Shown piece after piece: positions 1,607-4,144 of a DNA stretch of 6,204 nucleotides. Below the pieces are notes generated by a model. The model was not told where the DNA came from. It did not search any database and saw nothing but the letters and a program-made list of their open reading frames with translations. The position numbers and the translations under genes were made by a program. Origin of the DNA: a virus (lineage: Duplodnaviria; Heunggongvirae; Uroviricota; Caudoviricetes); the IMG/VR virus record IMGVR_UViG_2541047839_000003; one strand, written 5' to 3'. Within the stretch, counting starts at the first letter, position 1, and every line of letters starts with the position of its first letter.

Positions 1607-2419
1607 ATGCGTAACAAAAAAACAACAGCTTTATTACTCTCTATCTTGTTATTATCTGGATGCACTTATCAATATGATAATAAGGCATCAACGGACGTTG
1701 AGTATAAATTCGAAAAAGAAAAAAGAGTACCTATCAACTCTGTTGGTGATTTTAGCAGCAAAATACTCACAGGTAAGGAATTTAATAGAATTATTGCATC
1801 AAAGATAGATGATGGTTCATGGCGTGGATATGTCGTTCACTCATTAACATACGCGCCATACAACAACGTTTTAACATCTCAAGGTTTGTCTATCCCTAGA
1901 AGTATCACATACTCAGGAACATATCTTAACCGTGATTTTGTTGAGAATAGCGGTAGTGATAGCGTGATAACATCTCGAGATATGTCTGGATGGTATGGTT
2001 TTCATGTCGATTCCTCTGAAATAACAAAGCATGGAAGCTATGTTGGTGCTAATGCTTTTGGAATATCTGCTGATGTAGAAGTGTTAAATACTTTAGGTGC
2101 CGAAATTATCTTTGGTAGTACACAAATAAATGAAGGGAACCCTGAAACAATATGGGCAGATATTGATATAAAAGGACAAATACCAAAAGATGTTAATGTA
2201 AAAGACCTTAGAATTGAATATTTAGCAAAGATAAATGGGTTAAGCAGTAATCATATTGATATAACATCACCTACTATTTTTAACCCGTCAGATATGAGCC
2301 ATAAAACTCAGGTTTTTATGGGTGAGTTATTAGCCGCGCGCCTAATAAATATTAAAACGGGAGAAATTTATCCAGTACAGCTAGAGTGGGTGTTCCGTTC
2401 GCGTGAGGCTTTCTTATAA
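1607..2419 (+). CDS. lipoprotein of unknown function (270 aa) on an AT-rich insert
   Basis: N-terminus MRNKKTTALLLSILLLSGC has a basic n-region, hydrophobic core and lipobox LSGC with Cys19, followed by Thr at +2. The mature part is rich in S/T/N/G/Y. The gene is visibly much more AT-rich than its flanks. Confidence 0.75.
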   Translation: MRNKKTTALLLSILLLSGCTYQYDNKASTDVEYKFEKEKRVPINSVGDFSSKILTGKEFNRIIASKIDDGSWRGYVVHSLTYAPYNNVLTSQGLSIPRSITYSGTYLNRDFVENSGSDSVITSRDMSGWYGFHVDSSEITKHGSYVGANAFGISADVEVLNTLGAEIIFGSTQINEGNPETIWADIDIKGQIPKDVNVKDLRIEYLAKINGLSSNHIDITSPTIFNPSDMSHKTQVFMGELLAARLINIKTGEIYPVQLEWVFRSREAFL

Positions 2420-2480
2420 CGGAACAATAACATTGTTCATGTTCTGATCGTTTGTTCAAGCAAACTATAAAAACACCTGT

Positions 2481-2500
2481 CCCCGTGACTGGTCACGGGG
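2481..2500. promoter_or_regulatory. perfect 20-bp GC-rich palindrome (operator or hairpin)
   Basis: CCCCGTGAC-TG-GTCACGGGG is fully self-complementary. It sits between the lipoprotein gene and the promoter-like element at 2521 and is not followed by a T-run on the plus strand. Confidence 0.4.
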
Positions 2501-2520
2501 TAAAATGTCTTTGCAAATTA

Positions 2521-2550
2521 TTGACGTGTGCGTCGTTTTGGAGGTAAAGT
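2521..2550 (+). promoter_or_regulatory. candidate sigma70 promoter of the anti-immunity operon
   Basis: TTGACG at 2521-2526, 18-bp spacer, TAAAGT at 2545-2550; predicted start near 2557. A short palindrome GACGtgtgCGTC (2523-2534) overlaps the -35 and spacer. Hexamer matching only. Confidence 0.3.
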
Positions 2551-2610
2551 CACCTCGCTGCGGTAAATCCCGCAGTCGGGACTTCGCAATCCTGGCAAAA
2601 CGAAGCGCAC

Positions 2611-2634
2611 AACACGCGCCAGCGTGTTTTTTTG
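2611..2634 (+). terminator. intrinsic terminator / attenuator in the operon leader
   Basis: Stem CACGC (2613-2617) / GCGTG (2622-2626) with loop GCCA, extendable by two A-T pairs, followed by a run of seven T (2627-2633). It lies inside the leader, upstream of the structured RNA element and the first ORF. Confidence 0.5.
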
Positions 2635-2664
2635 TGTGTATAGACCTGCGCATATCCGAATTAT

Positions 2665-2743
2665 GGTGGCTCAGGTGGGGCTGACTTCGGTCGGGCCGGT
2701 TTCTTCGTTTACCGGTATTGCGAACCCCGCCTGGGCTACCACC
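2665..2743 (+). ncRNA. candidate C4/CI-type immunity antisense RNA (structured ~80-nt element); boundaries approximate
   Basis: A long-range stem closes the element: GGTGG 2665-2669 with CCACC 2739-2743, CAGG 2672-2675 with CCTG 2730-2733, TGGGG 2676-2680 with CCCCG 2725-2729. It encloses two hairpins: CTGAC-TTCG-GTCGG (2681-2694) and CCGG-loop-CCGG (2696-2715). The second loop contains CTTCGTTT (2703-2710), complementary to AAACGAAG (2598-2605) in the leader and, with one G-U pair, to AAACGGAG (2784-2791) over the GGAG of the next ORF. Confidence 0.35.
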
Positions 2744-2799
2744 AATAAAGAGATTCGCAACTCTGGTGGTAGCACGACCAATAAAACGGAGTGCATACC

Positions 2800-2964
2800 A
2801 TGTTCAAATTCAAATTTGCGGCAGTCGTTCGCACAGACAAAAAGTCCCACATTCATCATCTTTCCACTATCGCGTCATCTGAACGGGAAGCTCGTCGCCA
2901 GTTCGCCAGCCGGTTTGTCCTGGTATTGTCTGCCCGTATTCCGGTGCGCGAGGTGGCTGCATGA
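2800..2964 (+). CDS. Icd-like small protein (54 aa), candidate cell-division inhibitor and first gene of the operon
   Basis: ORF MFKFKFAAVVRTDKKSHIHHLSTIASSEREARRQFASRFVLVLSARIPVREVAA, too short for the supplied track. GGAG at 2788-2791 lies 8 nt before ATG 2800. Its stop overlaps the next start (ATGA at 2961-2964). Size, position and the motif resemble Icd-like proteins as I recall them; not verified by alignment. Confidence 0.55.
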   Translation: MFKFKFAAVVRTDKKSHIHHLSTIASSEREARRQFASRFVLVLSARIPVREVAA

Positions 2965-3194
2965 ATCAGGTAAAAATGAACGCTGTTGGCCTGCTGGAAT
3001 CGTTGGATGAACGTCTGGCTCAGGTCTATGCGCTCGTATCATCAGCCCATCGGACAGTCTCCAGCTGTGAGGCGTCGATTTATCTCTCAGAAGCAGGGAA
3101 ACTCCTTCAAATTGCGTGTGAGTTAACACACGAAGCACAGGGGTATTCAGCATCTCTCTCGTCGCAATTGCAGCACAATAAGGAGGCCAAATGA
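2961..3194 (+). CDS. hypothetical small protein (77 aa), middle gene of the operon
   Basis: Listed ORF; GAGGTGG at 2951-2957 precedes ATG 2961. Its stop overlaps the next start (ATGA at 3191-3194). No family recognised; it occupies the position of an antirepressor accessory gene. Confidence 0.55.
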   Translation: MNQVKMNAVGLLESLDERLAQVYALVSSAHRTVSSCEASIYLSEAGKLLQIACELTHEAQGYSASLSSQLQHNKEAK

Positions 3195-3973
3195 GCGCGT
3201 TAGCTGTATTTTCGTTTCAGGAAGAGCATCAGGTTCGTGTAGTGATGATTAACGGTGAGCCGTGGTTTGTGGCTAAGGATGTATGTGATGCTTTAAGACT
3301 CGTTAATTCCCGGAAGGCGCTAATGTCTCTGGATGAGGATGAAAAGGGTGTAACTTTAAGTTACACCCCTGGCGGAGAGCAAAAGCTAAATATTATTTCA
3401 GAGTCAGGTCTATACACCCTGATCCTCCGCTGCCGTGACGCGGTGAAGCAAGGCACAACAGCTTGGCGGTTTCGCAAATGGGTAACGAACGAAGTCTTGC
3501 CCTCTATTCGCAAAAATGGAGAGTACGTTTACATCGAGCCTGAGCCAATGCGAGCAGCGGAGCCGTTGAACTGGAGGCAGAAAGAGTATCTGCGAGGGCT
3601 GATTAACGATATAGCACAAAGTTTTCAGTACCGAAATGCCTGGATTAGCGGTGTATGGTTAGCTTTGCGTCGGGCGTGTCGTAATCCATCCCCGAACCCC
3701 ATAACGGTTGATGATTTGCCAGCAATTACGGCAGAACTGCGCCGGATTTTGACGGCTGCTGAGTCGGCATTGGGGAACATGCGCACGTATGAACGAGAGT
3801 TGTTGCGTGATGTTGTTCGTGGGGGTAGGCGGAGTATGTCGTGTGGTGATTTACCCATCACCGATATTAACTCTGATCTGGAAAAGGCGTTACCCGCGCA
3901 TTTTGAACTGGCAGTTCAAAAACTTGAGCAGTTATCCGCGCAGCTAAAGCCAGCAGAAATCACCAATAAATAG
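3191..3973 (+). CDS. Bro-N domain protein, antirepressor-like (260 aa)
   Basis: N-terminal ~110 aa (FSFQEEHQVRVVMINGEPWFVAKDVCDALRL ... ESGLYTLILRCRDAVKQGTTAWRFRKWVTNEVLPSIRKNGEY) matches the Bro-N signature seen in phage Ant/KilA-type proteins. AGGAGG at 3181-3186 precedes ATG 3191; stop TAG 3971-3973. Confidence 0.85.
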   Translation: MSALAVFSFQEEHQVRVVMINGEPWFVAKDVCDALRLVNSRKALMSLDEDEKGVTLSYTPGGEQKLNIISESGLYTLILRCRDAVKQGTTAWRFRKWVTNEVLPSIRKNGEYVYIEPEPMRAAEPLNWRQKEYLRGLINDIAQSFQYRNAWISGVWLALRRACRNPSPNPITVDDLPAITAELRRILTAAESALGNMRTYERELLRDVVRGGRRSMSCGDLPITDINSDLEKALPAHFELAVQKLEQLSAQLKPAEITNK

Positions 3974-4109
3974 GGTTGACCAGCCCGAATTTATGCCCTT
4001 CTTAGAGAAGGGAAGCCTCGCAGTCGGGGCGGTGATGTCTGTGGTTGCAGCCGCGTTTCCTCCGTTACTTCTGCCCTTTGCAGGGGGCAGGCGAGGTAGG
4101 TCACACAAC

Positions 4110-4133
4110 AAGGCACCGTTAATTCGGTGCCTT
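4110..4133. terminator. hairpin between the convergent ant operon and telN, candidate bidirectional terminator
   Basis: AAGGCACCG (4110-4118), loop TTAATT, CGGTGCCTT (4125-4133): a 9-bp stem 12 nt beyond the telN stop. A T-rich tract follows on the plus strand (TTACTGTATGCTTT) and a U/G-rich tract on the minus strand. Confidence 0.45.
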
Positions 4134-4144
4134 TACTGTATGCT

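Follow-up and report, generated by a model that had tools for sequence, protein, structure and literature searches.

A predicted IsrK-type leader RNA, terminator and C4-type antisense RNA ahead of the anti-repressor genes in an N15-like telomere phage-plasmid

Why should an intrinsic terminator stand just downstream of a promoter, ahead of the very genes that the promoter would express? This question is raised by positions 2521-2634 of the 6,204-nucleotide stretch of viral DNA analyzed here in full (the window). An original prediction, made from the letters alone, had read the site as a termination-control switch. Our comparisons point to a promoter with its leader RNA and leader terminator, belonging to an anti-repressor operon (secondary immunity, immA-type) in an N15-like telomere phage-plasmid. 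The leader module is of a known regulatory kind, an IsrK-type leader with a C4-type antisense RNA, and is real but ordinary.

Table. Features predicted in the window, with positions counted from its first letter.
Feature	Position	Strand	Description
Sigma-70 promoter (Pa-like)	2521..2550	+	-35 TTGACG 2521-2526, 18-nt spacer, -10 TAAAGT 2545-2550; consensus scan
IsrK/seqA-type leader RNA, ~77 nt	2557..2633	+	hairpin 1, hairpin 2, single-stranded linker, intrinsic terminator
Leader hairpin 1	2557..2576	+	GCUGCGG / CCGCAGU
Leader hairpin 2	2577..2594	+	CGGGA / UCCUG; loop presents a1
Target site a1	2583..2590	+	UUCGCAAU, loop of leader hairpin 2; complementary to C4 2717-2724
Target site b1	2598..2605	+	AAACGAAG in linker, 5 nt upstream of terminator stem; complementary to C4 loop
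Candidate anti-terminator hairpin	2605..2619	+	GCGC 2605-2608 / GCGC 2616-2619
Intrinsic terminator	2611..2633	+	stem AACACGC 2611-2617 / GCGTGTT 2622-2628, loop GCCA, T-run 2627-2633
C4-type antisense RNA (CA RNA homologue)	2659..2746	+	Rfam C4 RF01695, 82.3 bits, E = 1.2e-15
b' (C4 hairpin loop)	2703-2710	+	CUUCGUUU; partner of b1
a' (stretch 3' of C4 hairpin)	2717-2724	+	AUUGCGAA; partner of a1
Downstream target a2	2754..2760	+	UUCGCAA; cognate pairing 7-8 bp in 24/24 modules
Downstream target b2	2784..2791	+	AAACGGAG; overlaps Shine-Dalgarno GGAG 2788-2791 of icd-like ORF
icd-like gene	2800..2964	+	first operon ORF; NCBIfam NF033153 phage_ICD_like, 67 bits, E = 1.1e-18
antA-like anti-repressor gene	2961..3194	+	65% identical to N15 gp31, E = 5e-31; PHROG 10889 anti-repressor
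antB-like gene	3191..3973	+	BRO-N domain; Pfam Bro-N, 77.8 bits

Along the window, a sigma-70 promoter is followed by a leader hairpin with a T-run, a structured RNA and three ORFs. The antA-like product has a phiKO2 homologue, Gp28, whose annotation notes similarity to N15 AntA, and the antB-like gene is syntenic with N15 gp30 and with phiKO2 Gp27 (annotated AntB-like). Four protelomerase domains were detected, and icd, antA and antB are followed by protelomerase. The N15-type immA gene order was thus found in full: promoter, leader, CA/C4 RNA, icd, antA and antB, beside telN. Escherichia phage PhiR46_1 and several plasmids match the window at 100% identity, and in these records the leader and C4 RNA are unannotated or lie under hypothetical ORFs. 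Three ORFs overlapping the leader region, 2465-2653 on the minus strand and 2505-2684 and 2624-3010 on the plus strand, were judged spurious. The 'cA'/gene 32 CDS of N15 reflects an earlier interpretation of this RNA region as protein-coding. Upstream of the leader lies a low-GC ORF (1607-2419, 270 aa).

We examined the promoter and start that the original prediction had placed ahead of the terminator. Eleven promoter-like sites were found in the window against 14.2 expected, and the 2521-2550 site alone is not significant. Its conservation argues for it: the -35 and -10 positions are the same in related modules, all 22 aligned leaders keep the A and T of the -10, and a -35 of the type (C)TTGC/TTGAC stands at equal distance in about 20 unrelated modules. 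The -35 region of the leader is identical in N15. Because the -35/-10 position and the -10 A and T are kept in relatives, a transcription start near 2557 is well supported, and we infer a terminated RNA of ~77 nt.

The leader (2557-2632) scores 52.8 bits on the Rfam isrK model (RF01394; E = 1.7e-9), matching positions 1-77 of 77 at a small margin over the gathering score of 50, and the N15 and phiKO2 leaders reach 62.4 and 66.8 bits on the same model. The minimum free energy (MFE) structure contains three hairpins (-27.3 kcal/mol, z = -2.1), and the isrK architecture, in which a pair of 5' hairpins is followed by a single-stranded linker and then a terminal terminator, is present in both the MFE and the centroid structures. 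Hairpin 1, which had been noticed as CTGCGG/CCGCAG at 2557-2576, is real, with changes on both sides in 7/7 pairs and 96.8% of cells paired across 22 relatives. Hairpin 2 has a pair probability of 0.87 (-5.1 kcal/mol). Its count in the alignment is just 38% paired, which is not evidence against it, as the window register lies 2 nt off that of most relatives and the single-sequence probability is high. Another hairpin had been claimed between CTTCG (2582-2586) and CGAAG (2601-2605). Both arms exist in the sequence, yet they pair only in a minor conformer (probability 0.11, -3.1 kcal/mol) that is absent from the Rfam consensus and has its inner pairs broken in 9-13 of 22 relatives, and we rejected it as a conserved element. 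It arises because a1 (CUUCGCAAU) and b' (CUUCGUUU) of this phage share CUUCG by chance.

The terminator is present as described, a hairpin and seven T downstream of the start. Its 7-bp stem lies ~76 nt downstream of the promoter and ranks first of 13 terminator-like sites in the window (shuffles, 6.0 +/- 3.0), with a hairpin energy of -9.4 to -10 kcal/mol (z = -2.8). The helix is 87% paired across 22 relatives, and one pair alternates between CG and GC. Within the leader/terminator stretch, GAAGCGCACAACACGCGCCAGCGTGTTTTTTTGTGTGT is identical between the window and N15, and the terminator stretch matches at 100% identity a stem_loop that the N15 record marks as a putative rho-independent terminator. 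The phiKO2 record annotates the same terminator; phiKO2 and a Stx2 phage record annotate it together with the isrK and C4 pair. With an N15 immA homologue, an identical annotated hairpin and an isrK match next to C4, the description of the leader as P4/N15-type holds.

The terminator and the C4 RNA occur together in unrelated backbones, namely Stx lambdoid, P88-like and Klebsiella telomere phages, and in those unrelated phages nucleotide similarity to the window begins at the terminator itself. Among related modules, 101/106 carry the leader terminator. This count comes from a rewritten terminator finder; the version that demanded a perfect stem and a loop of 3-8 nt had overlooked the P1 hairpin along with four genuine terminators. 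In collecting the modules, the pattern CTTCGGNNNNGCCGGTTTC matched mainly coding sequences, and a stricter pattern gave the final set.

The C4 region (folding z = -5.3) begins 26 nt downstream of the leader and is flanked by complementary targets on both sides, a1/b1 upstream and a2/b2 downstream. The original prediction had correctly matched AAACGAAG at 2598-2605 to the RNA loop at 2703-2710 but had missed a1 in the loop of hairpin 2 and a2/b2 over the icd ribosome-binding site. Over the whole window AAACGAAG has just two occurrences, the (+) copy at 2598-2605 and the complement at 2703-2710 (chance expectation 0.23). The a1/a' and b1/b' pairs are 8 bp each in the window, and both covary. Cognate pairing of b1 spans 7-11 bp in 24/24 modules, no non-cognate b pairing of at least 7 bp was found (0/484), and two compensatory double changes in b1/b' separate the window from N15. 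Likewise, cognate pairing of a1 (7-8 bp) is kept in 24/24 modules through 12 different sequences, and the a1 site of the P1 record is the same site. The 106 related modules carry 42 different loops and 26 different a' segments, and both pairings covary among them. Downstream, b2 pairs with the C4 loop over 8 bp including one G-U pair, its Shine-Dalgarno GGAG lies 8 nt before ATG 2800, and the equivalent site covers GGAG(G/A) in 22/24 related modules. The anatomy of the module, its homology and the covariation of both pairings are matters of observation.

The position of b1 relative to the terminator is also constrained. Its end lies 5-8 nt from the terminator stem in 86/101 modules with a leader terminator, and its complementarity to C4 stops at G2605 and extends into the terminator arm in none of the modules. 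Covariation and this fixed distance suggest that pairing between the C4 loop and AAACGAAG bears on the terminator. They favor the earlier proposal that such pairing remodels the terminator region, whereas the route it took, via the CTTCG/CGAAG hairpin, is not conserved.

We propose as a conserved anti-terminator candidate the hairpin formed by 2605-2608 and 2616-2619. This competing hairpin overlaps b1 at G2605 and the 5' arm of the terminator at G2616 and C2617. In modeled folding of the nascent RNA it belongs to the MFE structure of transcripts ending at 2619-2624, and the terminator takes over from 2626. Its energy is -5.7 kcal/mol, or -2.4 with b1 blocked. An equivalent hairpin is predicted in all 62 distinct local sequences of relatives (-3.8 to -10 kcal/mol), comparable in strength with their terminator hairpins (-5.9 to -10 kcal/mol), and is lost or weakened with b1 blocked. 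The core GCG/CGC is nearly invariant (89% paired in the alignment) and alignment covariation is uninformative; the hairpin was assessed instead by per-sequence folding, with shuffle p-values of 0.008 to 0.42 per sequence, and by a table of partner bases. When b1 has A as its second-to-last base, the hairpin partner of that base is U in 5/6 lineages; with G there, 49/51 sequences have C or U as the partner. The rule fails in the window lineage, which has an A:C mismatch and the weakest competing hairpin of the family (4 bp, with one base shared with b1). In the P1 c4 leader three segments are arranged alike, the middle one able to pair with the first or the third. At equilibrium the predicted probability of the terminator is 0.97-0.99, whether or not b1 is occupied, against 0.006 for the competing hairpin. 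Therefore, any switch would have to be kinetic.

Taken as a whole, the locus is probably an immA-type leader with C4-controlled termination, negative feedback and a decoy leader. Transcription from near 2557 would produce an IsrK/seqA-type leader consisting of hairpin 1, hairpin 2 displaying a1, a linker with b1, and the terminator. Transcripts that read through would carry the C4-type RNA (2659-2746), which is cut out by processing in relatives, and then icd-antA-antB. The exposed b' and a' segments of C4 could find pairing partners both in the leader (b1/a1) and over the icd ribosome-binding site (a2/b2). Without C4, the 3' end of b1 and the spacer would pair with the 5' arm and loop of the terminator, and this short competing hairpin, forming before the terminator 3' arm emerges, would lower termination. 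C4 bound to b1 would remove the competing hairpin, letting the terminator form and transcription stop at 2629-2634. Read-through would then make C4, and C4 would shut read-through off. The terminated ~77-nt leader would keep a1/b1 and might serve as a decoy or activator, as shown for IsrK, by binding either C4 itself or the C4 domain of long transcripts. In this scheme the sign of the C4 effect on the terminator and the role of the competing hairpin are what we infer.

A broader proposition would take in the whole C4 family, including P1: b1 would overlap an anti-terminator hairpin, C4 would act in trans as an anti-antiterminator and the terminated leader as a sponge, making a two-RNA toggle. 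We hold this generalization to be possible but doubtful. We did not find a general C4 anti-antiterminator mechanism spelled out in the accessible literature, and the authors of the IsrK study raise C4-type control of the IsrK terminator only as a possibility (PMC4825925). The behavior of Gifsy-1 speaks against C4-controlled termination here: constitutive STnc1160 enhanced IsrK toxicity, unlike what a simple C4 termination factor would do (PMC4825925).

Could the terminator act without any C4 control? It might be constitutively leaky, with the main task of yielding a stable IsrK-like sRNA of ~77 nt that binds C4, or the C4 domain of read-through transcripts, in trans via a1/b1 and so activates icd/ant, while C4 leaves termination unchanged. 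The predicted terminator probability, above 0.97 whatever the occupancy of b1, fits such a reading, as does the description of the Rfam isrK family as an Hfq-binding sRNA. Gifsy-1 offers a precedent: compensatory mutants proved there that short IsrK, made by termination, pairs with the C4-equivalent region of the read-through mRNA and so activates its translation (PMC4825925). A leaky terminator leaves unexplained, however, why b1 keeps its distance of 5-8 nt from the stem in 86/101 modules and why a competing hairpin overlaps b1 in every relative. We regard it as unlikely, and it is compatible with C4-controlled termination rather than exclusive of it.

C4 might also act with the opposite sign, hindering the terminator or stabilizing the nascent RNA at a1/b1 and so increasing read-through. 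A duplex 5 nt from the stem could sterically impede hairpin nucleation, and the enhanced IsrK phenotype under constitutive STnc1160 in Gifsy-1 would agree with such anti-termination (PMC4825925). Yet the complementarity ends at G2605 and enters the terminator arm in no module, C4-type RNAs are repressors in P1/P7 (record annotation) and in P4 (PMC4825925), and positive feedback on an anti-repressor operon would destabilize lysogeny, making this sign very improbable. The remaining alternative, that the hairpin and T-run end the upstream genes (ORF ending at 2419) or insulate the operon and that the complementarities are coincidental, is effectively refuted. The terminator does lie downstream of an unrelated ORF of low GC (1607-2419), and from the end of that ORF to 2611 no other is predicted. 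A conserved promoter, however, stands between that ORF and the terminator, the terminator and the C4 RNA move together into phage backbones that are otherwise unrelated, and covariation of b1/a1 with C4 excludes coincidence.

For the window itself the significance is small: it holds a recognizable copy of a module that Rfam models (isrK and C4) and that is annotated in N15 and phiKO2, of a kind already studied experimentally in N15, P4, P1 and Gifsy-1. There is value in annotation, as the leader and RNA are unmarked or covered by hypothetical ORFs in the identical PhiR46_1 and plasmid records. Across the family, b1 at 5-8 nt and the hairpin overlapping it provide a testable account of the way in which a small RNA might impose intrinsic termination.

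Among known systems, P1/P7 immI (Citron and Schuster 1990; GenBank NC_005856) has the same a1-b1-c4-a2-b2-icd-ant layout, with b2 over the ribosome-binding site, and the P1 record states that C4 at a2/b2 represses icd and ant translation. Its leader holds a terminator-like hairpin and T-run, preceded by a competing hairpin overlapping b1. The loop of the P1 hairpin measures 12 nt, no terminator is annotated there, and the P1 leader scores 35 bits on isrK, below the gathering score. Conversely, the window leader scores 24.8 bits on the c4-a1b1 model (RF03163), under its gathering score of 46.7, where P1 itself scores 51 bits. By these scores the window leader is assigned to the isrK branch, not the P1 branch. 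One module taken as P1-like, L069, turned out to be a Pseudomonas-type module.

In P4 immunity (seqA, CI RNA = seqB, seqC), a processed leader-encoded RNA of the C4 clan pairs on both sides and causes premature termination, and seqA with CI has been described as the structural homologue of IsrK with C4 (PMC3632133, PMC4825925). The P4 system controls the replication (alpha) operon, whereas the genes of the window are icd/antA/antB in a telomere phage. The main regulated site of P4 (timm) is Rho-dependent and lies downstream of CI. The window element resembles P4 immunity in the way it would work but does not belong to it.

IsrK/STnc1160/orf45-anrP of Gifsy-1 (Salmonella; Rfam RF01394; Hershko-Shalev et al. 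2016, PMC4825925) has the same three-hairpin leader ending in an intrinsic terminator, followed by a processed RNA at the C4-equivalent position and an anti-repressor gene. IsrK ends at a rho-independent terminator that some transcripts read through, and STnc1160, at the C4 position, arises by processing of the read-through transcript (PMC4825925). Pairing of the leader with the C4 domain was proven by compensatory mutants; IsrK in trans raised downstream transcription 8-fold; constitutive STnc1160 did not relieve IsrK toxicity (PMC4825925). The Gifsy-1 backbone is lambdoid, not that of a telomere phage, its C4-equivalent region was read by the authors as a small ORF (orf45) with translational activation (PMC4825925), and its likeness to the window was measured via the Rfam covariance model alone.

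The closest system is the immA region of N15 (GenBank AF064539, U63086), a direct homologue at about 80% nucleotide identity (79.9% over 649 nt). Pa promoter, leader, CA RNA and icd-antA-antB follow in the same order beside the protelomerase gene, the -35 region and the terminator with its flanks are identical to the window, and the N15 leader and RNA also score as isrK and C4. Termination in N15 reportedly depends on processed CA RNA, a finding ascribed to Ravin, Svarchevsky and Deho in 1999 (Mol Microbiol 34:980). In that case transcripts would read through by default when the RNA is absent, the reverse of the default stop assumed in the original prediction. The low-GC 270-aa ORF upstream in the window is absent from N15. 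The recognition segments differ as well: b1/b' is AAACGAAG/CUUCGUUU in the window and ACAAGAAG/CUUCUUGU in N15, and a1/a' is UUCGCAAU/AUUGCGAA in the window and UCUCAAC/GUUGAGA in N15. The a and b pairs reassort freely among relatives, and because both differ from N15, the window is predicted to have a separate immunity, or anti-immunity, specificity.

Three plus-strand genes, Icd-like, AntA-like and Bro-N, lie upstream of a protelomerase gene, and megablast places the region among N15-like telomere phage-plasmids. Together, the gene content and the N15-like matches indicate that the element heads an N15-type immA (secondary immunity/anti-repressor) operon. By megablast, identity over 2400-3200 is 97% to Escherichia phage PhiR46_1, 91% to YDC107_1 and 80% to N15, and 2505-2800 is 100% identical in PhiR46_1 and in plasmids such as NZ_CP019258. 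The region has similar sequences in 211 phage and 266 plasmid records. In distant relatives (Stx, P88-like and others) similarity starts at the terminator itself (query position ~99-110); hence the terminator travels with the C4 RNA and not with the sequence upstream of it.

Features of the leader, the C4 RNA and the operon, with the evidence for each
Feature	Positions	Strand	Evidence
Promoter-like site TTGACG-18-TAAAGT	2521-2550	+	Consensus match and comparison with relatives
isrK (RF01394)	2557-2632	+	Rfam, 52.8 bits (gathering threshold 50), full model
a1 UUCGCAAU	2583-2590	+	In loop of leader hairpin 2; pairs with a' AUUGCGAA (2717-2724)
b1 AAACGAAG	2598-2605	+	Site of the original prediction; pairs with b' CUUCGUUU (2703-2710)
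Competing hairpin GCGC/GCGC	2605-2608 with 2616-2619	+	Nascent-RNA folding
C4 antisense RNA (RF01695)	2659-2746	+	Rfam, 82.3 bits; adjoins the isrK match
a2	2754-2760	+	Downstream of C4
b2 AAACGGAG	2784-2791	+	Downstream of C4; takes in the icd Shine-Dalgarno GGAG
Icd-like ORF	2800-2964	+	NCBIfam NF033153
AntA homologue ORF	2961-3194	+	65% identity to N15 gp31; PHROG anti-repressor
Bro-N protein gene	3191-3973	+	Bro-N domain
Protelomerase gene, 633 aa	4145-6046	-	Four TelK/ResT Pfam domains

As a bare consensus match, the promoter-like site is not significant in a scan of the window; comparison makes the predicted promoter convincing. The -35 region is the same in N15 and the window, a -35 element stands at equal distance in ~20 otherwise unrelated modules, and the 5' part of 22 aligned leaders has no invariant base except the -10 A and T. 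With such a conserved promoter, transcription would start near 2557 and the terminated RNA would be ~77 nt long. The hairpin and T-run that the original prediction placed in this leader are present (stem 2611-2617/2622-2628, loop GCCA, seven T at 2627-2633). Among 13 terminator-like sites detected across the window (shuffles give 6.0 +/- 3.0), the terminator (2611-2633) ranks first, and its hairpin folds at about -10 kcal/mol (z = -2.8). Likewise, the proposed first hairpin (2557-2576) is strongly supported by compensatory changes in 7/7 pairs. The letters of the proposed second hairpin, CTTCG (2582-2586) with CGAAG (2601-2605), are there, but it is a minority conformer (probability 0.11, -3.1 kcal/mol) beside a hairpin CGGGA/UCCUG at 2577-2594 (0.87, -5.1 kcal/mol). 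We rejected it as a conserved element: it is missing from the Rfam consensus and lacks conservation in relatives.

Several observations concern the surroundings of the leader. A perfect 9-bp inverted repeat, CCCCGTGAC-TG-GTCACGGGG at 2481-2500, lies 20 bp upstream of the -35; N15 keeps most of it, in the form CACGTGACTGGTCACGGGG. The repeat could serve as an operator at which a protein acts on the promoter, or as a terminator-like end to the upstream unit. Further upstream, a 270-aa ORF (1607-2419, plus strand) with a lipoprotein-type N-terminus (MRNKKTTALLLSILLLSGC) sits in a low-GC island (33-39% GC vs 42-52% around) and has no match in Pfam, NCBIfam or PHROGs. N15 does not have it at that position, and the small gene that PhiR46_1 carries in its place is another one, annotated Spackle. 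The ORF has the look of an accessory (moron) gene that entered immediately before the immA promoter. ORFs at 2624-3010 (+), 2505-2684 (+) and 2465-2653 (-) overlap the leader and C4 RNA. In N15 records the position still bears a CDS, the 'secondary immunity repressor' gene 32 / cA; this is an earlier interpretation, as a protein, of a region that present models treat as an RNA gene. In several plasmid records the surrounding region goes under the label 'ash family protein'. At the far end of the operon, the antB-telN intergenic region (3974-4144) is structured (-70.4 kcal/mol, z = -2.8), with no Rfam match found. A strong hairpin with flanking T/A runs, AAGGCACCG/CGGUGCCUU, closes the region at ~4109-4135, at the place equivalent to a bidirectional terminator annotated in phiKO2; CTCGCAGTCGGGG (4017-4029) is similar to the sequence where leader hairpins 1 and 2 meet (CCGCAGTCGGGA).

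The interaction between leader and C4 is real and is positioned relative to the terminator. Site labels follow the P1 GenBank record, with a1 and then b1 upstream, b' the C4 hairpin loop and a' the stretch 3' of that hairpin. The b1 8-mer, originally predicted to be complementary to the downstream RNA loop, indeed occurs only there and, as its complement, in b'; a1 is a second leader target that had been overlooked. Compared with N15, b1 and b' differ at two positions per side in a compensatory manner, and a1 and a' differ likewise. Searching viral contigs for a C4 core pattern, in two scans, yielded 106 unique modules. In the first set (n=24), cognate b pairs span 7-11 bp and cognate a pairs 7-8 bp in every module, none of 484 non-cognate b combinations reaches 7 bp, and the downstream sites behave like the leader sites, the one pairing with the C4 loop covering the Shine-Dalgarno in 22/24. 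The 106 modules comprise 42 different loops and 26 different a' segments; a leader terminator is present in 101, and in 86 of those b1 ends 5-8 nt before the stem.

Recognition pairs (window 2583-2605 and 2703-2724) reassort independently among the modules (contigs L003-L215), the same C4 loop occurring with different a' and the reverse (e.g. L034, L006 and L055; or L015 and L086 vs N15). Such reassortment resembles a combinatorial way of diversifying immunity specificity, for which P1 vs P7 is a precedent in principle. More than one isrK-C4 module is present on some contigs and plasmids: L074 has two C4 matches (266-353 and 8633-8720) differing in specificity, and plasmid records have 2-4 places each; several modules on one replicon raise the question of cross-talk between them. 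A minority of C4 modules has no recognisable T-run terminator after b1 (L128, L147, L165, L182, L207, L024, L069), thus the leader terminator is common in the C4 clan, not universal. L069 and L024 are Pseudomonas-type, and L069 matches the c4-a1b1 model rather than isrK.

In 62/62 distinct relatives, folding of the RNA that spans b1 and the terminator loop gives a short hairpin at a stage when the terminator 3' arm has yet to be made. Its 5' strand consists of the last 1-6 nt of b1 plus spacer, and its 3' strand of the end of the terminator 5' arm plus loop bases. Energies of this competing hairpin (-3.8 to -10 kcal/mol) are comparable with those of the terminator hairpins (-5.9 to -10), and blocking b1 in folding removes or weakens it. 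An A as second-to-last base of b1 faces U in 5/6 lineages, and a G at that position faces C or U in 49/51 sequences. The A-U rule fails only in the window/N15 lineage, which also has the weakest competing hairpin of the family (four pairs, one base shared with b1). The core of the hairpin hardly varies, so alignment covariation is silent, and per-sequence shuffle p-values range from 0.008 to 0.42. In the window, folding nascent RNA with its end at 2619-2624 places the hairpin in the minimum-energy structure; the terminator replaces it from 2626. At equilibrium the terminator dominates (probability 0.97-0.99 vs 0.006), thus any effect of the competing hairpin must be kinetic.

The leader terminator of the immA operon is probably controlled by C4 via the competing hairpin. 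When C4 is absent, this hairpin would delay terminator folding and permit read-through, yielding C4 and the anti-repressor. C4 on b1, aided by a loop-loop contact at a1, would then remove the competing hairpin and enforce termination, and would meanwhile block icd translation by pairing with a2/b2. The terminated 77-nt leader would keep a1/b1 and could titrate C4, as IsrK does. We consider the sign of the C4 effect and the anti-terminator role of the competing hairpin, taken jointly, moderately likely. In N15, according to the 1999 study by Ravin and colleagues, leader termination reportedly requires processed CA RNA, the N15 counterpart of C4. In P4, CI RNA was reported to cause premature termination via pairing with seqA and seqC (PMC4825925).

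The main rival, which we regard as unlikely, holds that the terminator is constitutive and leaky and serves to produce a trans-acting leader RNA; it is compatible with C4-controlled termination, the two not being mutually exclusive. The Salmonella prophage Gifsy-1 bears on both. Its IsrK leader RNA ends at a rho-independent terminator, a subset of transcripts reads through to a long mRNA, and STnc1160, a stable RNA at the C4-equivalent place, is a processing product of the read-through transcript (PMC4825925). The IsrK middle hairpin pairs with the downstream domain at that place, as proven by compensatory mutants, and IsrK in trans raised downstream transcription 8-fold and translation >100-fold (PMC4825925). 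Against C4-enforced termination, IsrK toxicity was enhanced, not relieved, when STnc1160 was made constitutively (PMC4825925).

The element qualifies both as Rfam isrK and as an N15-type immA operon, and its family membership is close to certain. Homologous leaders score 62 bits (N15) and 67 bits (phiKO2) with isrK. The homologous stem-loop carries the annotation 'putative rho-indep. transcription terminator' in the N15 genome record; aligned with the window, N15 shows no difference over the 38 nt of terminator and flanks, whereas the surrounding leader has diverged. A matching 'terminator' is annotated ahead of icd/antA/antB in phiKO2, and a Stx2 phage record places 'isrK Hfq binding RNA' beside 'C4 antisense RNA'. 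The original prediction was of a termination-control switch of the P4/N15 type; P4 immunity works alike, but the genes under control differ, which places the element outside that system. seqA and CI have been described as structural homologues of IsrK and C4, and structurally similar systems are said to be used by P1, P7 and N15 (PMC3632133). P1 and P7 share the a/b logic with the element, which falls below the threshold of the P1-type c4-a1b1 model (24.8 bits vs 46.7). The P1 c4 leader, a sub-threshold isrK match (35 bits), resembles the family in having UGCGG, CCGCA and UGCGG before a T-run, the middle segment being able to pair with either flank. In P1 (L126, NC_005856), 48274-48311 holds a hairpin plus T-run directly after b1, reading ACCGCA, a 12-nt loop, TGCGGT and ATTTTT, preceded by a competing hairpin TGCGG/CCGCA overlapping b1; the record annotates no terminator there. 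The element belongs to an already known kind of module, with a and b specificities that differ from those of N15, and the family-wide anti-terminator reading is the sole part of the finding that might be new.
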